Of a stretch of 64,000 nt of DNA, positions 3,025 through 62,966 are shown piece by piece. Below the pieces are notes generated by a model. That model ran no database searches, was not told where the DNA came from, and saw only the letters and a program-made list of their open reading frames with translations. A program made the position numbers and the translations under genes. The stretch spans positions 99,464-163,463 of the forward strand of contig JBAYJK010000001.1 in NCBI GenBank assembly GCA_041665145.1. Direction: 5' to 3'. The stretch is from Patescibacteria group bacterium (GTDB taxonomy: Bacteria; Patescibacteriota; Microgenomatia; UBA1406). Numbering within the stretch: position 1 is the first letter of the stretch; each line of letters begins with the position of its first letter.

Positions 3025-5415
3025 ATGGCTACAGAAGCAAAAAAAATAGAAAATTTACTTCCGGTTATTCCCATTCGTGACGGTCTTGTTTTTCCAAAAA
3101 CAGAGTCTCCACTTATTTTTGGGCGACAGAAGACTATCAGCGCATTTGAAGTTGCAACTCAAAAAGATAAGAAGCTTATTCTTGCTTTGCAGAAAGATTC
3201 TCGGTTGAACGACCCTGATTCCGATGACCTGTATACTACGGGTGTGGTTATCTATATTGAGAGATATGCTTCACTTGAGCATGGCGAGCTTCAGGTGCTT
3301 GTTCGCGGAATGTCTAAAGTACGCATCAAAAACTATGTGTCTACGGAGCCATACTTTGTGGCCTCTTATGAGGAGATTGAGGAAATAGAAGATTCCGATG
3401 ATGAAACTAAAGCGATGGTATTACATTTGTCAAATGAGCTTAAAAAGGCCATAAACCTCGGGAAGAATATAGATTTTATGGCGTTGATGAATGTATTTTC
3501 CGAATTGCCGCCCCTTGATTTCTCATATCAAATCGCGGCAGTCTTGGACCTTAAGCCGCAAGAACGCCAAAACCTGTTGGAAGAAACTGTTGTTAAAGAG
3601 AGGTTGCAGAAAAGCGTTGATTATTTGAGTAAGGAAATTAAAGTTCTCGAAATAGAACGTAATATAAGTGCCAAAACCCAAAAGCAATTCGAAAAAGGTG
3701 TTAAAGAAACAGTGTTGCGCGAAAAGATGCGGGCAATTGAAAAGGAGTTGGGCGGAGACAAAGAGGACAAGGATATAACCGAGTACCGAAAGAAAATAAA
3801 GGATGCAAAGATGACGGAGGAAGTCGAAAAGAAGGCTCTGAAAGAACTTGAGCGATTGGCAAAAATGTCGCAATATAATCCGGAGACATCGTATTTACGA
3901 ACGTATATTGATTGGCTGACCGATCTTCCCTGGAATGTTTATTCGCCGAGCGATATCGACATAAAAGAAGCCGAAAAAGTTCTGAACACCGACCACTACG
4001 GTTTAAAGAAAATCAAAGAAAGAATTCTTGAATACCTCGCGGTAATGAAATTAAGAAAGTCTGATGAAAAGAAGGGTATGAAGTCGGTTAACCCTCCCAC
4101 AATTCTCTGTTTTGTCGGACCTCCGGGTGTCGGTAAAACATCTTTAGGCAAATCCATTGCGCGCTCACTGAAGAGAAAATTCATTAAAATTTCCCTGGGA
4201 GGAATTCGGGATGAAGCGGAGATTCGCGGTCACAGGAGAACATATGTTGGAGCACTTCCCGGACGTTTCATACAAGGTATAAAGCAGGCAGGTACGAACA
4301 ATCCGGTATTCATGCTTGATGAAATAGATAAACTGGGGAGAGATTTCCGCGGAGATCCATCAGCCGCCCTTCTTGAGGCGCTTGACCCTGAACAAAATCA
4401 CGCGTTTTCAGATCACTACCTTGAGGTGGATTTTGACTTATCTCAAGTAATGTTTATTACTACCGCAAACGTGCTTGATACTATTCCACCGGCCCTCTTG
4501 GATCGCTTGGAAGTAATACATTTTGCCGGTTATACCGAGGATGAGAAATTTGCAATAGCCAAGGAATATCTCGTTCCGAAGCAAAATGAGGCGCACGGTC
4601 TTTCTGCATATAACTATAAAATGCTGGATAACGCAGTCAGTTTGATAATTAAGCGCTATACAAGAGAAGCAGGTGTTCGCGAACTGGAACGTCAAGTCGC
4701 AACCATCTTCAGAAAGATTGCCCGTAAAGTTGCGGATGGCTCCGAAGCACAAGGTCAATCGGAAGCAAAATCGGCAACAAAAACAATTACAACCGCACAG
4801 GTAACGGAGCTTTTGGGACCATATAAATACAGTTCGCTCTTGGCTGAAAAAGAGGATGAGGTGGGTATGTCAACGGGACTCGCCTGGACTCAGGTGGGAG
4901 GAGAGATACTTTTTATTGAAGTTTCAATAATGCCGGGTAAAGGAAGATTAACGCTGACCGGTCAATTGGGAGACGTCATGAAAGAATCGTGTCAGGCAGC
5001 AGTTTCTTACACGCGCAGTCGTTGGGAGCAATTGGGATTAGATAAGAGTTTCTATGAAAAAATAGATATACATATTCATGTTCCGGAAGGAGCAGTTCCG
5101 AAAGACGGTCCGTCAGCCGGTCTGGCAATAACTACAGCTTTAATATCTGCTCTGACCAAGAATCCGGTAAAGAGGGATGTCGCTATGACTGGCGAGGTTA
5201 CGTTAAGAGGCCGCGCGCTTGAAATAGGCGGTTTGAAGGAAAAAGTTATTGCGGCACACAGTGCGGGTATCAAAACCGTAGTTGTACCTAAAGACAACAA
5301 AAAAGACTTGGTGGAATTTCCCAAAAAGATATTGGATGATTTGAAATTTGTTTTTGTAAGTCATATGGATGACGTTCTCGAAGTTGCATTTAAAAATAAA
5401 ATCAAAAGGAAATAA
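3025..5415 (+). CDS. lon: ATP-dependent Lon protease (LonA)
   Basis: N-terminal LON substrate domain, Walker A GPPGVGKTS, and the catalytic serine motif PKDGPSAGLAITTAL. Confidence 0.95.
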   Translation: MATEAKKIENLLPVIPIRDGLVFPKTESPLIFGRQKTISAFEVATQKDKKLILALQKDSRLNDPDSDDLYTTGVVIYIERYASLEHGELQVLVRGMSKVRIKNYVSTEPYFVASYEEIEEIEDSDDETKAMVLHLSNELKKAINLGKNIDFMALMNVFSELPPLDFSYQIAAVLDLKPQERQNLLEETVVKERLQKSVDYLSKEIKVLEIERNISAKTQKQFEKGVKETVLREKMRAIEKELGGDKEDKDITEYRKKIKDAKMTEEVEKKALKELERLAKMSQYNPETSYLRTYIDWLTDLPWNVYSPSDIDIKEAEKVLNTDHYGLKKIKERILEYLAVMKLRKSDEKKGMKSVNPPTILCFVGPPGVGKTSLGKSIARSLKRKFIKISLGGIRDEAEIRGHRRTYVGALPGRFIQGIKQAGTNNPVFMLDEIDKLGRDFRGDPSAALLEALDPEQNHAFSDHYLEVDFDLSQVMFITTANVLDTIPPALLDRLEVIHFAGYTEDEKFAIAKEYLVPKQNEAHGLSAYNYKMLDNAVSLIIKRYTREAGVRELERQVATIFRKIARKVADGSEAQGQSEAKSATKTITTAQVTELLGPYKYSSLLAEKEDEVGMSTGLAWTQVGGEILFIEVSIMPGKGRLTLTGQLGDVMKESCQAAVSYTRSRWEQLGLDKSFYEKIDIHIHVPEGAVPKDGPSAGLAITTALISALTKNPVKRDVAMTGEVTLRGRALEIGGLKEKVIAAHSAGIKTVVVPKDNKKDLVEFPKKILDDLKFVFVSHMDDVLEVAFKNKIKRK

Positions 5416-7936: not shown

Positions 7937-8008
7937 TGGGTCCAGCGGGACTCGAACCCGCAACCAACGGCTTAAAAGGCCGCTGCTCTACCATTGAGCT
8001 ATAGACCC
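7937..8008 (-). tRNA. tRNA-Lys (anticodon UUU)
   Basis: Manual cloverleaf: 7-bp acceptor GGGTCTA/TGGACCC, D-arm GCTC/GAGC with GG, anticodon loop CTTTTAA, T-arm GCGGG-TTCGAGT-CCCGC, discriminator A; 72 nt. Confidence 0.85.
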
Positions 8009-51284: not shown

Positions 51285-51995
51285 TTATTCTTCTACAATA
51301 GTTAGATTCAGAATCTTGTCAGGCTTTACCGGTTGCGAGTCTTCTCCCGACGGACTGGTGGTAACCGGTGCTGTTGCGATTTTATCGACCACATCAAGAC
51401 CGGTAACGACATGCCCGAAAATAACGTAATTTTTTGGCAGTCCGGCGTCTGCATGCATGATAAAAAATTGACTCCCGTTTGTGTTCGGTCCTGCGTTTGC
51501 CATGGCCACCGTTCCTCTCGTGTATTCACCGGTAAATGGTTCGTCATCAAATCGGTATCCTGGTCCGCCGGTACCGTCACCTTTCGGGTCACCGCTCTGA
51601 ATCATAAAGCCGTCAATTATCCGATGAAAAATAACATTATCATAGAACTTCTGACGGGCAAGAAACACAAAATTATTTACGGTCTGTGGTACAGTGTCAG
51701 CAGCAAGTTCTATAACAATCTCTCCCTGCGAAGTTTTCAATGTTGCAGTGTACTTTTTTGCAGAGTCTATGGTTAACTCGGGGGGAGTGTTCCACTGTTT
51801 CTTCGCCGTACTGTTTTTGGTATTTTTTTTCATAGTATCTTCTGTTGGTTCCTCTGTAACTTGTATTAATTGACTGTCCGGCGTTGGGGTGGGTGTTGCT
51901 GAAATTGTCGGTGTGCCACCGTTTGTCACAATAAAATAAACTACGACTACGAGAGTTGCAGCTACGGCGATGAGGTAATAGATTTCTTTTTTCAT
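51285..51995 (-). CDS. ppiB: Secreted cyclophilin-type peptidyl-prolyl cis-trans isomerase
   Basis: FHRIIDGFMIQSGDP, GGPGYRFDDE, AMANAGPNTNGSQFFI; N-terminal TM/signal plus a TPTPTP linker. The start is at MKKE (51995); 52010 is the alternative. Confidence 0.85.
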   Translation of the reverse strand: MKKEIYYLIAVAATLVVVVYFIVTNGGTPTISATPTPTPDSQLIQVTEEPTEDTMKKNTKNSTAKKQWNTPPELTIDSAKKYTATLKTSQGEIVIELAADTVPQTVNNFVFLARQKFYDNVIFHRIIDGFMIQSGDPKGDGTGGPGYRFDDEPFTGEYTRGTVAMANAGPNTNGSQFFIMHADAGLPKNYVIFGHVVTGLDVVDKIATAPVTTSPSGEDSQPVKPDKILNLTIVEE

Positions 51996-52017
51996 GTTGT
52001 GAGCATACAAAAAAATA

Positions 52018-55606: not shown

Positions 55607-55680
55607 CGGGGTGTAGTTCAGATGGCTAGAACGTACGCATGGGGTGCGTAAGGTCGCCGGTTCAAGTCCGGCCACCCCGA
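55607..55680 (+). tRNA. tRNA-Pro (anticodon GGG)
   Basis: Manual fold: C1-G72 acceptor CGGGGTG/CACCCCG (C1:G72 is typical of bacterial tRNA-Pro), U8, D-arm GTTC/GAAC with GG, anticodon loop ATGGGGT, T-arm GCCGG-TTCAAGT-CCGGC, discriminator A; 74 nt. Confidence 0.8.
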
Positions 55681-57399: not shown

Positions 57400-58578
57400 A
57401 TGTCAACCTCCACTATTGTTTGCCCCCATTGTCACGAACCCATTGAATTAACAGATGCGCTGTCGCACCAAATACGAGAGGGTGTGGTTAAGGAATTTGA
57501 AGACAAACTGAAAGCAAAAGACGTAGAGGTTGAAAAACAGAAGCGTGCCATGTGGGAAAAAGCACAGGTAGAGGCAAAAAAGAAAATAGAAGCAGCACAA
57601 AAAGAACAGATGAAGGAATTGGAAGAAGAATTGGTTGAGAAAACTAAGAAATTGGACGAAGCGCGGAAAGTGGAACTCGAGATCCGTAAACAGCAGCGCC
57701 AACTCGAAGAAGACAGAAAAGATCTTGAATTGCAGGTTGCCCGAAAACTGGATGAAGAACGGAAAAAGGTTACCGAAGATGTTTTGAAAAAATCCCAGGA
57801 GGAACATGCTCTCAAAGACCGGGAAAAAGAAAAAGTAATTCAGGATCTTCAGAAATCTCTTGAAGATGCGCAACGTAAAGCGGCACAAGGTTCGCAGCAA
57901 ACACAAGGCGAAGTTCAGGAACTTGCGCTTGAAGAACTGTTAAAATCCGAGTTTCCATATGACGAAATTTTGGAAGTTGCCAAAGGTGTCCGCGGAGCGG
58001 ACGCAATACAAAAAGTGCGGGACCAGCGGGGCAGGGAATGCGGAACAATCGTATGGGAATCGAAACGGACAAAAGCCTGGACTGATGGGTGGATTCCTAA
58101 ATTAAAAGAAGACCAGCGCGCGTCGCATGCAGATGTCGCGGTTTTAGTGACGGAAGCGTTGCCGAAAGATATTACGAATTTCGGATACAAGAGCAATGTG
58201 TGGATAACCAACTACCCGTCTTTAATCGGTGTGGTTACTGTTTTGCGAACAATGCTCATACAACTCTCGAGCATCAAACAATCACAAACGGGTAAGGATG
58301 AAAAAATGGAAGCGTTGTATAACTACTTAATCGGTACGGAGTTCCGTCAGAAAATAGAAGCCATCGTCGACGGATTCACCACGATGAGAGATGACTTGCA
58401 ACGTGAAAAAGATGCATTCAGAAAGTTGTGGGCAAAACGCGAAAAACAGATCCAACAGGTTCTTGAAAATACCATCGACATGCATGGAAGTCTGCAGGGA
58501 CTGATCGGGAAGTCTTTGCCGGAGATAGGTAGTCTCGAGTTGCCCGCAGCTGAAGATACGCAAGATACTCTGCTTTGA
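57400..58578 (+). CDS. DUF2130-like protein: N-terminal CxxC zinc-ribbon, ~200-aa K/E-rich coiled coil, conserved C-terminal domain
   Basis: CPHCHEPIEL at the N-terminus, a long EEKLK-type heptad region, and the C-terminal block VRGADAIQKV...GTIVWESKRTKAWTDGWIPKLKED...VAVLVTEALP. Confidence 0.45.
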   Translation: MSTSTIVCPHCHEPIELTDALSHQIREGVVKEFEDKLKAKDVEVEKQKRAMWEKAQVEAKKKIEAAQKEQMKELEEELVEKTKKLDEARKVELEIRKQQRQLEEDRKDLELQVARKLDEERKKVTEDVLKKSQEEHALKDREKEKVIQDLQKSLEDAQRKAAQGSQQTQGEVQELALEELLKSEFPYDEILEVAKGVRGADAIQKVRDQRGRECGTIVWESKRTKAWTDGWIPKLKEDQRASHADVAVLVTEALPKDITNFGYKSNVWITNYPSLIGVVTVLRTMLIQLSSIKQSQTGKDEKMEALYNYLIGTEFRQKIEAIVDGFTTMRDDLQREKDAFRKLWAKREKQIQQVLENTIDMHGSLQGLIGKSLPEIGSLELPAAEDTQDTLL

Positions 58579-58608
58579 GAATTTTACTGCTTATATTCCA
58601 AATCTTGC

Positions 58609-58636
58609 TTGACAAATTTCTGTTACCTGGTATCCT
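58609..58636 (+). promoter_or_regulatory. Sigma70-type promoter of the copper operon (TTGACA -16- TGgTATCCT)
   Basis: TTGACA at 58609-58614, TG at 58628-58629, -10 TATCCT at 58631-58636. Confidence 0.5.
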
Positions 58637-58649
58637 GGGGGGGAGGATA
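58631..58649. promoter_or_regulatory. Putative CsoR/RcnR-family operator: TATCCT-GGGGGGG-AGGATA inverted repeat flanking a G7 tract
   Basis: A perfect 6-bp inverted repeat around G7, overlapping the -10 element. It has the same architecture as known RcnR/CsoR sites (AT-rich inverted repeat flanking a G/C tract). Confidence 0.55.
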
Positions 58650-58666
58650 GGAGAGGGGGAGATAGT

Positions 58667-58719
58667 TTTCAATTTTCAATTTACAGTTTTCAATAAATTA
58701 ACAAGTTTCAATTTTCAAT
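58667..58719 (+). repeat. Five copies of TTTCAAT (two tandem pairs) in the csoR 5' leader, last copy abutting the ATG
   Basis: TTTCAAT at 58667, 58674, 58688, 58706 and 58713; there is no Shine-Dalgarno sequence. Confidence 0.6.
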
Positions 58720-58983
58720 ATGAATAACTACCAGGAAAAACTTTTGCATCGGCTCAAAATAATTCGGGGACACCTGGATAAAGTTATCAAGATGGTTGAA
58801 GCGGATGAATATTGTATGGATATTATGCAGCAAACTACGGCCGTCGGGTCCGCATTAAAGGAAGCGGAAAATATGATTTTGGAGAATCACCTGAAAACAT
58901 GCGTAACCGAATCCATCGTCAATCATCGCGGCGTCGAGAAGAAAGTAGACGAAGTAATAAAAGTTTTCAGGGCGAGGAAATAA
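58720..58983 (+). CDS. csoR: CsoR-family copper-sensing transcriptional repressor (DUF156)
   Basis: LKIIRGHLDKVIKMVEADEYCMDIMQQTTAVGSALKEAENMILENHLKTCV: a C...H...C ligand fingerprint (x-C-H-C, Cu(I)-type) in the conserved helix pattern. Confidence 0.8.
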   Translation: MNNYQEKLLHRLKIIRGHLDKVIKMVEADEYCMDIMQQTTAVGSALKEAENMILENHLKTCVTESIVNHRGVEKKVDEVIKVFRARK

Positions 58984-58986
58984 TAT

Positions 58987-59343
58987 ATGGAAAAAATTAT
59001 TGTTACTCTATTCGGGATCATAGGAATTGCTGTAACGTATTGGTTTTTCTTTAAGAAGGAAGAACGGCAAGTTGAAGCGCATGGAACTATTCATATTACG
59101 GTTGATGGTGGTTATGTTCCGCAAGTTATCTCCATAAAAAATAATTCCAAAACAAAAATCATATTTACCAGGAAAGATCCAAACCCGTGCCTTGAAGATG
59201 TTCTTATTCCTGATTTCAAAATTAAACGCGCACTGCCGTTAAAAATACCCGTTTCAGTAACTCTCGAACCTCACAAAATCGGAGAATACCAGTTGTCGTG
59301 CGGCATGCACATGTTCCACGGCAAAATAATTGTCCATGAGTAA
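58987..59343 (+). CDS. Membrane-anchored cupredoxin-like copper-binding protein
   Basis: N-terminal TM; the C-terminal [18 protein letters not shown] matches the Cupredoxin_1 C-x-M-H-M-x-x-G motif of copper-resistance operon proteins. Confidence 0.7.
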
Positions 59344-61615
59344 AACAAAACAAGTGATCAAAATCAAGGGTATGCATTGCGCGTCTTGTGTATACACACT
59401 CGAGAAAGCGCTGAAAAATGTAAACGGTGTAGTGAATGCAAATGTTAATCTCGCAACTGAGCAGGCGCATGTTGAGTATGACTCCTCTGTTGCTCGTGAG
59501 CAAGATCTTAGTGATGCGGTGCAGGGGGCGGGGTATCAAACACAAATAGCATTAGAAGATGAAGTGCGCGAAAAGGAACAGGCAAAATCTGAAAAGAAAA
59601 AAGAGCTTAACGCGTTGCGCATTAAAGTTGTAGTCAGTTTAATTTTAGGAGGACTTATTGTATGGGGTAGCTTTCCTGGACTTGTTGCTACGTCACCACT
59701 GTTTTTACGCAACGGGATACTGCAGCTAGTTTTAGCGACTATTATCCAGTTCTGGGCGGGTCTGGATTTTTATCGTGCAACGATTCCTGCACTTAAACAC
59801 AGAACCGCAAATATGGACACCCTTGTTGCGGTGGGAACAAGTGTTGCATACATCTATTCCGTTGTTGTTACTTTTTTCCCGGGAATTGTTGCACAAACAG
59901 GGATAGAAGTAATGTCTTACTTTGACGTCTCGACGGTTGTTATTGCACTTATTCTGCTCGGGCGGTATTTTGAAGCGAAAGCGAAATCGGGAACATCGGA
60001 GGCAATAACTAAGTTGATAGGTCTTCAAGCAAAAACTGCACGTGTTTTGAGAAACGGAAAAGAAATTGATATTCCGCTTTCAGAAGTTGTGGTTGGTGAC
60101 ATTATTCGGGTACGACCGGGGGAAAAAATACCCGTTGATGGAGTTATTACCGAAGGAAGTTCATCTGTTGATGAATCTATGGTTACGGGAGAAAGTATGC
60201 CCACAGATAAAATAAAAGGAAGTCCTGTTATCGGAGCTACCATAAACAAAAATGGATCATTTCTCTATAAAGCAACCAAAATAGGATCTGAAACCGTGCT
60301 ATCTCAAATAATCAAACTTGTGCAGGAAGCACAAGGCAGTAAGGCGCCCATACAACGTTTAGCTGACGTGGTGTCGTCATATTTTGTTCCCATTGTGATT
60401 ATGCTCGCGTTGGCAACATTTGTTGTATGGTTTGACTTTGGCGGACAATCAGCGTTTATTTTTGCCATGCTTAATATGGTCGCGGTTCTGGTGATTGCGT
60501 GTCCGTGTGCAATGGGTCTTGCGACCCCAACGGCAATCATGGTCGGAACCGGAATAGGTGCTGAACATGGCATTCTCATTAAAGATGCGCAGGCACTGGA
60601 AACTGCACATAAAATCAATACGATTGTTTTTGATAAAACAGGAACGCTAACGAACGGAAAGCCGGTAATAACTGATATTATTGAAATTCAAAATCCTGCC
60701 TCGCCGGCAGGCGGGTCAAATGACAAACATCAAATGAAACCCAAAATTCAAAAGGAAGAAATTTTGAGGATAGCTGCGTCGTTGGAGAAGAATTCGGAAC
60801 ATCCGTTGGCAGAAGCTATTGTCAAAGAGTCGGAACATAGAAAAATTACGTTGGAAAAAGTCACCTCTTTCAAAGCTATTCCCGGTCACGGCGTTCAAGG
60901 TGCAATTGGTAAAAAGAACTATGTATTGGGCAAACCGTCTTTCATTAAAAATGCGCACAAAGTATCGGAAATTGAAGAATTGGAACGTGCCGGAAAAACG
61001 GTTATGGTTTTGGCACAGAACGAAACAGTAATTGGTGCGATCGCGGTTGCCGACACCGTGAAAGACACGGCCAAGAATGCAGTTTTAACGCTGCAGAGAA
61101 TGGGAATCGAGGTTCTCATGATTACCGGTGATAATGAAAGAACTGCACAAACGATCGGTAAGGAGATCGGGGTAGACAGGGTGCTTGCGGAAGTGCTTCC
61201 CGGCGAGAAGGAAACCGAAATCCGTAAATTGCAAAAAGACAACAAAGTTGTTGCGATGGTCGGTGACGGAATAAATGATGCTCCGGCACTCGCTGCGGCT
61301 GACGTTGGAATAGCTGTCGGAACTGGAACAGATGTAGCGATCGAAACCGCGGATATTATTCTGGTTAACAAAAACTTATTTACAGTTGTCTCGGCAATTC
61401 AACTTTCCAAGTCTACCATGAGGACCATTAAAACAAATCTCTTTTGGGCTTTCGGCTACAATATTGTTCTTATTCCTGTCGCAATGGGAGTGTTGTATCC
61501 GTTGTTTAACATCTTATTGAGTCCGATTTTTGCTTCAGCTGCTATGGCACTGTCAAGCATTTCAGTGGTTACGAATTCCTTATTATTAAAAAAAATTAAA
61601 CTTCAGAATGCTTAA
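59330..61615 (+). CDS. copA: Copper-translocating P1B-type ATPase
   Basis: N-terminal [18 protein letters not shown], the TM CPC motif ([12 protein letters not shown]), [15 protein letters not shown], and SEHPLA. Confidence 0.95.
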
Positions 61616-62966
61616 AAAAACAACGCTACATGTTCAGGGCATGCACTGTCCGTCATGCGAAATTCTTGTTACGGACAAATTTAAAGAAGTCGGTGGGGTG
61701 AAAAACGTGAAAGCAAATTTCAGAAATTGTGAAGCAGAAGTTACGTATTCGGGAGACCTTAATCTTAATAAACTGAACAGAAAAATCGAGAACTTCGGAT
61801 ACAAGGTCGTTCACGGGCCGATTCAAGAAGAGATTCAGGAACCGTTATTAAGTAGATTAATGGATGTATCGATAATTTCATTGGTTTTACTTTTCGTATA
61901 TTTTATCGCTCAGAAGTTAGATCTCATTCCGACAATAGGGGGATCGGCTGGTTTGACAGTAATAACGGCGGTTCTTTTGGGTTTGGTTGCTTCTGTTTCC
62001 ACCTGTATGGCTACTTCAGGAGCGCTGTTTTTGTCTACAATAGGGACGTTAACAACCAACAGTAAAGAGTTGATAGTTGATAGTCGATGGTCAACACACA
62101 AACTCATTCCGGCGATCAGTTTCAGTTTAGGAAGAATTATTTCATACGCGGTTGTCGGCTTTATAGCAGGGTATGTAGGAAACACGCTTACAAACAACCT
62201 GCAACTGGGGGCGCTGTTAACATTAGTCGTCTCGATTTTTATGATTCTGGTCGGTCTTGATATGGCTAAAATAATTTCCCTACAAAAGTATATGGCACAA
62301 ACTTTCTCAAAAGGGATATTCGAGAAATTGTCCGGTAAATTACGAGAAAACCCCCGAAGAACCGCCTTGTTTTTGGGTATGGTGACGGTATTACTGCCGT
62401 GCGGATTTACACAAACAGTTCTGGTTTACAGCATCGGTTTAGCAGACCCCGTACAAAGCATGTTGATGATGGCAGCGTTTGCTGTTGGCACAGTGCCGAC
62501 GCTTATAGTTATCGGGTTTGTGAATTCGTTTACCACATCGAGCTGGTACCCGATTTTGCAAAAAATTATGGGAGTGGTGGTTTTGTTTATCGGTGTCACC
62601 TATGTCATGAATTTCCTCTCATTGGCGGGTGTTTCTTTCCCGAATCTAGCCGTGCCATCTGCCAGACAACAGGAAGTGACAAATGAACCCGTGGTGAAAA
62701 ACGGCGTTCAGGAAATTGTCATGACGGTAGACGGACGCGGTTACTCACCGAGTTTTTTCAAAGTCAAGAAGGGAGTTCCTGTCCGATGGATAATTAAGGG
62801 AGAAAATGTTTACGGTTGTCAGGGATATTTAGTTGCTCCGAGAATGAATGTGCAGCAGGCGCTGAAACCGGGAGATAATGTTATCGAATTTACTCCAACG
62901 GAAAATGGAACATTACCTTTTTCGTGCGGTATGGGAATGTATCGCGGACAATTTCAGGTCGAGTAA
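61608..62966 (+). CDS. Tri-domain protein: N-terminal HMA (CxxC) domain + polytopic Cys-containing membrane domain (DsbD/CcdA- or TauE-like) + C-terminal cupredoxin-like domain
   Basis: [14 protein letters not shown] (HMA); 8-10 TM helices with intramembrane Cys ([18 protein letters not shown]); C-terminal [13 protein letters not shown] (Cupredoxin_1-like). The start overlaps the copA stop. Confidence 0.6.

Follow-up and report, generated by a model that had tools for sequence, protein, structure and literature searches.

At the cso and copZA promoters of Mycobacterium tuberculosis, Bacillus subtilis and Streptomyces lividans, a small PF02583 repressor with an x-C-H-C Cu(I) site is autoregulated or encoded beside a CopA-type ATPase, and its operator is a pseudopalindrome with a G/C-rich centre that overlaps the promoter. 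In the operator class called type 1, a single G/C tract of 3–8 bases is flanked by inverted repeats 6–9 bp apart (PMC3902906). Regarding the translation of mRNAs without Shine-Dalgarno (SD) sequences, unstructured 5' tails acting by ribosome standby have been documented for the MS2 coat gene (PMC5934652), and structure-tuned initiation has been documented in SD-less Bacteroidetes (PMC6847099). In Parcubacteria, an anti-SD motif was detected in only 48% of genomes, and its absence was concentrated in a subgroup (PMC9297842). Here, we analyzed a copper-export operon of an uncultured Patescibacteria bacterium (contig JBAYJK010000001.1), located in a stretch of 64 kb that is hereafter called the window. 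The gene order of the operon is csoR-cupredoxin-copA-HMA/DsbD, and all the traits of the cso and copZA promoters listed above recur in it. In addition, the leader between the operator and the csoR start codon carries an array of TTTCAAT-like heptamers. On balance, we lean toward the view that a CsoR-repressed promoter is followed here by a structure-free leader that would serve SD-independent initiation.

Predicted operator and promoter of the copper operon

The original prediction placed upstream of csoR a promoter TTGACA-16-TGgTATCCT, an inverted repeat TATCCT-G7-AGGATA and five TTTCAAT heptamers, and every one of these elements was found where it had been placed (Table 1). The inverted repeat does overlap the promoter; rather than being centered on the -10 element, as had been supposed, it has a left arm that is itself the -10 hexamer. 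The region up to the array reads cTTGACAaatttctgttaccTGgTATCCTGGGGGGGAGGATAggagagggggagatag. No second match to the 19-mer TATCCTGGGGGGGAGGATA exists in the window, even at 3 mismatches (0 expected), and its G7 tract is the only run of G or C of at least 7 nucleotides (nt) in the 64 kb. A 6-bp inverted repeat by itself is common by chance, and the significance of the site comes from the G7 tract, the position and the conservation. With its single G7 tract and inverted-repeat arms 7 bp apart, the site agrees with the type 1 definition. Other CsoR sites were looked for in the window, where ATCC-N9-GGAT occurs at 5162 and 27665, with no extended palindrome and with a count near chance.

The predicted promoter is of the sigma-70 type, with a 16-nt spacer and a TG at 58628-29. 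It scores 10/12 with the TG and is the sole plus-strand promoter-like site within 58300-59100. Its -35 is conserved, and the -10 hexamer TATCCT departs from the consensus. Such a weak hexamer would be aided by the TG extension and by a GGG discriminator adjoining it on the 3' side. The transcription start, placed from the position of the -10, is predicted at about 58643-58644; the leader would then be about 76 nt long. The conserved block 5' of the -35 may be an UP-element-like A-tract. The purine-rich segment that follows the operator could be a set of extra half-sites or a trace of leader growth; right-arm duplications analogous to this segment (58650-58665) were also seen in the relatives' loci L050 (GGATA three times) and L017 (TGGAGGA twice). 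On the minus strand, a promoter-like site TTGAAA-17-TATCCT (58644-58672) arises from the first heptamer combined with the right arm of the operator palindrome. A divergent promoter at this site was rejected: its geometry is not kept in L052, only the antisense of a DUF2130 gene lies downstream, and the match is probably due to chance.

The first gene of the operon encodes a protein scoring 90.7 bits against the PF02583 profile (cut-off 22.8). Its matches in the PDB were 2hh7, 4m1p, 4adz and 3aai, the best being M. tuberculosis CsoR (2hh7, E 5e-18). Cys32, His57 and Cys61 align with the Cu(I) ligands C36, H61 and C65 of M. tuberculosis CsoR, and the second-shell residues Tyr31 and Glu78 align with its Y35 and E81. 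Given these aligned C-H-C ligands and the Tyr/Glu second shell, the repressor is assigned to the copper-type CsoR proteins and not to the RcnR, FrmR or CstR types. We take the W position to be without an N-terminal His or Cys, the start lying 10 residues ahead of RLK.

The upstream regions of 64 relatives' loci (L001-L064; the window locus is designated WIN), obtained in two collection scans and eleven exact-protein look-ups, were compared. A search of reference-genome contigs gave no CsoR orthologue closer than 59% identity; the close relatives that proved informative were supplied by the metagenome scan and the exact-protein look-ups. The window clade comprised loci whose CsoR is 60%–87% identical, and distant orthologues of the candidate phyla radiation (CPR) were about 50%–59% identical. 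The operator of L051 is identical to that of the window, and the one of L052 is one base off. Perfect TATCCT/AGGATA arms enclose other centers in L050 (ATGGTGG), L054 (ATGGTGT), L061 (ATCCAGG) and L064 (ATCCATA), L017 has TATCCT-GTGGTGG-AGGAgA, and L057, with the same center as L054, retains ATCC-N9-GGAT, as does L059. Since TTGAC[AT] sits 16–17 nt 5' of the left arm throughout the clade (gap checked in WIN, L051, L054, L058, L061 and L064), the left arm doubles as the -10 hexamer in these relatives too. The distant CPR orthologues have the 19-bp frame in the form TATCCCC-N3-5-GGGGGATA, situated immediately after a separate -10 or overlapping it, and the frame often ends at or overlaps the start codon. 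Some 15 of the more distant CPR orthologues have TATCC-N9-GGATA, in each case at the -10 or beside it.

Two points weigh against the assignment of this site. Conservation of the G-tract in orthologous promoters was looked for and not found, the GGGGGGG center being limited to WIN, L051 and L052, so that the site class is not clear-cut. The distant CPR sites, with TATCCCC-N3-GGGGGATA, are type 2-like. Moreover, the CsoR sites in the literature are described as type 2 (PMC3902906). A CsoR-type operator, as originally proposed, is upheld by the PF02583 protein with C-H-C ligands, the type 1 fit and the recurrence of the frame, and the proposed architecture, an inverted repeat around a G/C tract, needs correction. 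What is conserved is the pair of TATCC-N9-GGATA arms at fixed spacing and not the G-tract. The site is thus under selection at a fixed promoter position, which provides strong support for an operator, and we consider it very probable that the inverted repeat is the CsoR autoregulatory operator overlapping the promoter.

The predicted promoter would drive the copper-efflux operon, and its first product, CsoR, would repress its own promoter. As expected from the family, apo-CsoR would bind the 19-bp palindrome TATCCT-N7-AGGATA. The left arm being the -10, and the center and right arm covering the discriminator and the transcription start, the bound repressor would exclude RNA polymerase. Binding of Cu(I) by Cys32, His57 and Cys61 would release CsoR, again by analogy with the family. 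With high confidence, the operator and promoter part can be regarded as a standard CsoR autoregulatory switch.

Leader and heptamer array

An SD-like word occurs within 20 nt of the start in only 1 of the 55 long open reading frames (ORFs) of the window. Upstream of the starts, GGAG and AGGA are depleted, and TATA, TATAC and TATTA are enriched. SD sequences are also scarce in the relatives' loci; in the relatives without an array, an SD-like word was seen at 6 of 37 non-csoR starts. None of GGAG, GAGG and AGGA is present within 20 nt of the csoR ATG at 58720; the lack of an SD sequence noted earlier is therefore real, and it is a genome-wide trait rather than a peculiarity of this leader. Since 54 of the 55 ORFs lack an SD sequence, its absence at csoR needs no special explanation, and the long leader is the unusual part. 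TTGACA/TAnnnT-type promoters, in which a TAnnnT -10 with a partial -35 ends 4–11 nt before the start, were found at 17 of the 55 starts versus 4% of random start-type codons. This pattern suggests leaderless mRNAs, which seem to be widespread in this Patescibacteria metagenome-assembled genome. For csoR, no TAnnnT hexamer ends 4–11 nt before the ATG at 58720 (best 7/12, AATTTT). The operator fused to the -10 extends 13 nt past it, and so the promoter cannot be leaderless; this fusion would force a leader on csoR. In the relatives without an array, the right arm is 4–8 nt from the ATG, and the leader is about 10–13 nt long. The right-arm AGGA is unlikely to work as an SD sequence in these relatives, whose genomes are SD-poor. 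A second promoter inside the array that would yield leaderless csoR mRNA was rejected, since no TAnnnT hexamer lies at the right distance; the TTCAAT of the array has no A at position 2, and the only -35-like hexamer is TTTACA, 21 nt upstream.

The exact TTTCAAT copies start at 58667, 58674, 58688, 58706 and 58713, and the last one abuts the ATG. This heptamer occurs 33 times in the window versus 31 ± 5.5 expected by chance. The clustering of five same-strand copies in 53 nt, however, has a Poisson probability of about 4e-12 for any one such interval and of about 5e-7 over the entire 64 kb. The five copies belong to a longer degenerate array that is the top-scoring tandem repeat of the window (period 7). 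Its units are TTTTCAA TTTTCAA TTTACAG TTTTCAA TAAATTA ACAAG TTTCAA TTTTCAA T, followed by the ATG. A higher-order duplication of 25 nt is superimposed (58671-58695 versus 58696-58720, 80% identity). The composition of the 54 nt is A19 C7 G2 T26. No further array was found in the 64-kb window.

The leader is poor in RNA structure. The array plus the start (77 nt) has a minimum free energy of -2 kcal/mol, and 197 of 200 shuffled sequences fold at least as well. For the whole predicted leader, the value is -9.5 kcal/mol versus a shuffle mean of -14.4, with 198 of 200 shuffles folding at least as well; the leader is thus less stable than its shuffles (z +1.5 to +1.7). An Rfam scan of the leader gave no match with E below 0.6, and no terminator-like site was found on the plus strand in the scan of the leader region. 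A leader structure, one of the originally suggested options, is contradicted by the folding, which is worse than that of 197–198 of 200 shuffles, and a riboswitch or attenuator was rejected on the same grounds (structure weaker than in about 99% of shuffles, no Rfam match and no plus-strand terminator).

Five control regions (WIN, L050, L052, L017 and L051) align as one homologous module, which consists of a ATACCAAAAAAC block, the -35, a variable spacer, the operator, purine-rich partial duplicates of the right arm, 0–8 heptamers and the ATG. The array comprises about 4 units in L052 (TTTTCAA/TTTATAA/TTTTCAG/TTTTCAC), 4.4 units of AATTTCT in L017, which is identical to L060, and 4.6 units in L050. 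In WIN, L052 and L017, it reaches directly to the start codon, and in L050 it is at most 8 nt away. In L050 (625-717), the promoter, the operator TATCCT-ATGGTGG-AGGATA and the heptamers are located ahead of a DUF1573 gene, and csoR, which is found three genes farther downstream, lacks its own operator. Because the L050 module precedes a DUF1573 gene, the array is assigned to the promoter module rather than to csoR. Most orthologous leaders, the one of L051 included, are without the repeats, whose presence there had been made the test of the original prediction, and diverged forms occur in four close relatives. In the CsoR tree, array-bearing loci are found on both branches of the subclade. This distribution means that the array either arose early and was subsequently lost in some lineages or was gained more than once. 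A single TTTCAAT is present directly before the ATG in two distant orthologues, L001 and L030. In L028 (745-844, 53% identical), the 84-nt csoR leader contains a T-rich series of period 7 (ATTTTTC GTTTTGC ATTTTAC ATTTTTA) plus an A/T palindrome and may represent an independent repeat-built leader.

A 23-nt core of the array is shared with the relatives (Table 1) and is otherwise absent from the 245 kb of loci and from the window. Its identity across relatives is 74%–96%, versus 42%–55% at the third codon positions of csoR and 38%–56% in the -35/-10 spacer; shuffles of the core average 37% identity. Synonymous sites are near saturation among the relatives compared. The repeats are real and lineage-restricted, and part of them appears to be under constraint. 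In L058 (5877-5939), the core is located between the stop of a DUF1573 gene and the start of a DsbD-like gene and is followed by an inverted copy; the cop cluster of this locus is 68% identical.

Our preferred reading of the array, held tentatively, is that of a ribosome landing or standby region. The leader would start with the duplicated right operator half, and its last 54 nt are the TTTTCAA array, which would have expanded through tandem duplications in the interval from the operator to the ATG. This G-poor, structure-free array ending in UUUCAAU-AUG would provide the place for SD-independent landing or standby. It is favored by the facts that the array always runs up to the start codon, is maximally unstructured and offers the UUUCAAU-AUG context in three lineages. 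Several observations weigh against it. L051 has the identical operator without heptamers and with the ATG 7 nt downstream, and the array is also missing from L054, L057, L059, L061 and L064, which are equally SD-poor, so that it is dispensable. TTCAA and TCAAT are not enriched before the other 54 starts of the window, and the array is therefore not a general ribosome-binding signal; TTTTCAA as the general non-SD ribosome-binding motif of the genome was rejected for this reason. A purely unstructured role would not need conservation of a specific 23-mer, and the core of L058 folds with its inverted copy into a hairpin (-18.6 kcal/mol, z = -3.9) at another intergenic site, where the sequence is put to a different use. 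An A/U-rich loading region and a second regulator site had both been offered as explanations for the repeats; the array is indeed conserved in part and unstructured, and relatives nevertheless do without it.

The second of these explanations, according to which the array would comprise binding sites for a sequence-specific DNA- or RNA-binding factor and subject the cop promoter module to a second level of control, is rather unlikely in our estimation. It would account for the conservation of the core, far above that of synonymous sites and the spacer, for the travel of the array with the promoter module whatever gene follows (L050, DUF1573) and for the direct and inverted copies of L058 in another intergenic region of the cop cluster. 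Direct and inverted heptad arrays are a known operator format (PMC9499535), and contiguous 7-bp heptads are bound cooperatively by ribbon-helix-helix (RHH) proteins such as omega/ParB of plasmid pSM19035. However, the window has no other such array, Pfam scans of the ORFs on either side of the operon yielded neither an RHH gene nor another regulator gene, L051 and most orthologues lack the array, its copy number and unit sequence drift (AATTTCT in L017), and a DNA roadblock would not need to reach the start codon, as the array always does. Alternatively, the array could be functionless, a slippage minisatellite derived from an ancestral start context (...ACAAGT/TTTCAAT-ATG) and tolerated since initiation in this SD-free organism needs only an unstructured region. 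Presence of the array varies among orthologues 82%–87% identical, the number of units ranges from 3 to 8 and their sequence differs, a 25-nt higher-order duplication is present, and the adjoining segment is also a product of duplication. Furthermore, the ACAAGT-ATG of L051, L002 and L021 matches ACAAG-TTTCAAT-TTTCAAT-ATG in the window. Yet the identity of the core, including the variant middle unit AATTTAC common to WIN and L058, is far above the neutral expectation, and at least four lineages, which represent both branches of the subclade, have kept the array. We therefore consider a functionless array doubtful.

Two further explanations are, even jointly, very improbable. Rho-utilization (rut) sites are C-rich, G-poor and unstructured, and a leader with more C than G could act as a rut-like or RNase-sensitive element that would attenuate or destabilize cop transcripts whenever csoR is not being translated. 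In favor of this, the array has 7 C versus 2 G in 54 nt, a UC in each TTTTCAA unit and no RNA structure, but its length is only about 54 nt, it is very rich in U and not in C, and its core is conserved, whereas rut sites have no sequence conservation; this explanation is highly unlikely. Still less credible, to the point of being negligible, is a short upstream ORF translationally coupled to csoR. In L052 (470-534), GGAGGA is followed after 6 nt by a GTG, a frame of 16 codons and a TGA overlapping the csoR ATG (ATGA), and the same frame is open through the array of the window, where it stops at TAA (58725-58727). However, the frame of the window has no ATG, GTG or TTG 3' of the predicted transcription start, which largely refutes this idea for the window, the ORF of L017 has only 5 codons and stops 30 nt short of the ATG, SD sequences are not used in this genome, and neither the window nor L017 nor L050 conserves the feature. 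A bolder proposal, which we regard as unlikely, is that the array with its core AATTTTCAATTTACARTTTTCAA would be a dedicated cis-regulatory element of the copper-resistance clusters of an SD-free Patescibacteria clade, read by a trans factor (protein or RNA). If true, the heptamer element would provide a second, possibly post-transcriptional, layer of control or gene-specific recruitment of ribosomes, and it would move with the module between first genes.

Organization of the operon and its surroundings

The four genes of the operon abut or overlap and therefore form a single operon (Table 1). The stop codon of csoR is separated by 3 nt from the next ATG (58981-58989), a stop/start overlap ATGAGTAA is present at 59336-59343, and copA shares 8 nt with the following gene (61608-61615). 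For copA, the ATG at 59336, which overlaps the preceding stop, is the more likely start than the TTG at 59330. This tight packing of genes is consistent with translational coupling in an SD-free genome.

Table 1. Features of the csoR control region and genes of the copper operon in the window
Feature	Position	Strand	Basis and remarks
Conserved block 5' of the -35	58595..58602	+	ATTCCAAA in window, ATACCAAAAAAC in relatives; columns invariant in five-region alignment
-35 hexamer TTGACA	58609..58614	+	Promoter scan; TTGAC[AT] kept in clade
Extended -10, TG-g-TATCCT	58628..58636	+	Hexamer 58631-58636 doubles as left operator arm
Predicted CsoR operator, 19 bp, TATCCT-G7-AGGATA	58631..58649	.	Frame TATCC-N9-GGATA; unique in window; frame recurs in CPR csoR orthologues
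G7 tract, operator center	58637..58643	+	Occupies discriminator and predicted transcription start
Purine-rich segment GGAGAGGGGGAGATAG	58650..58665	+	Partial tandem duplicate of right operator half (G5-AGATA versus G7-AGGATA); read from sequence
Degenerate heptanucleotide array, 8.1 TTTTCAA units	58666..58719	+	Tandem Repeats Finder; holds five exact TTTCAAT
Conserved 23-nt core AATTTTCAATTTACAGTTTTCAA	58671..58693	+	1-3 mismatches in L058, L050, L052; 74% identical in L017
csoR, Cu(I)-sensing repressor, 87 aa	58720..58983	+	PF02583, E 8.1e-26
Cupredoxin-like protein, N-terminal transmembrane segment	58987..59343	+	PF13473, E 1e-20
CopA-type P1B ATPase	59330..61615	+	HMA, E1-E2_ATPase and Hydrolase domains; CPC motif in translation
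HMA-DsbD_2-cupredoxin membrane protein, final operon gene	61608..62966	+	PF00403, PF13386, PF13473

A DUF2130 gene is located directly 5' of csoR both in the window (57400-58578) and in L057 (279-1391). A cyclophilin gene, found ahead of csoR in L054 and L061, is located at 51285-52010 in the window. These DUF2130 and cyclophilin neighbors are interpreted as local synteny in the surroundings of the cop cluster. At the gathering threshold, Rfam matched nothing in the window except two tRNA genes (7937-8008, minus strand; 55607-55680, plus strand).

Comparison with known systems

The analysis suggests that copper sensing by CsoR extends into uncultured genome-reduced Patescibacteria with a recognizable but shifted operator grammar, in which the TATCC-N9-GGATA arms are kept, the center is free and the left arm is the -10. 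This grammar gives a ready motif for the prediction of CsoR regulons. The leader, in turn, raises the question of how a necessarily leadered, repressor-controlled mRNA is translated in an SD-free organism rich in leaderless mRNAs, and a heptamer array that is conserved in sequence and located exactly there offers a concrete candidate that can be tested. Should the array be mere slippage, the finding would reduce to an ordinary CsoR control region.

Characterized CsoR sites differ from the one described here in being type 2, with two G/C tracts and TAC-X9-GTA dyads (PMC3902906). Here, the arms are TATCC/GGATA (ATC-X11-GAT), the center is a single G7 that is replaced by non-G/C sequence in relatives, and, unlike in characterized sites, the left arm doubles as the -10 hexamer. 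The type 1 operator of Escherichia coli RcnR (TACT-G6-N-AGTA) resembles the site of the window in its one uninterrupted G-tract and in its short inverted repeats 7 bp apart. However, RcnR has an H-C-H-H set of ligands instead of the Cu(I) set C-H-C and a tandem pair of sites instead of one, and the G-tract of the window is not conserved among orthologues.

Leaders of the standby type share with the csoR leader a G-poor, structure-free region directly 5' of the AUG in an organism without SD use. In contrast to them, the array consists of tandem heptamers with a conserved 23-nt core and is specific to one promoter module. The heptads bound by omega/ParB of pSM19035 are likewise contiguous 7-bp units, and L058 has direct and inverted copies, a resemblance of format only: the unit is different, no RHH gene was found among the neighboring ORFs scanned, and, unlike the pSM19035 heptads, the array of the copper operon would be transcribed and abuts the start codon.

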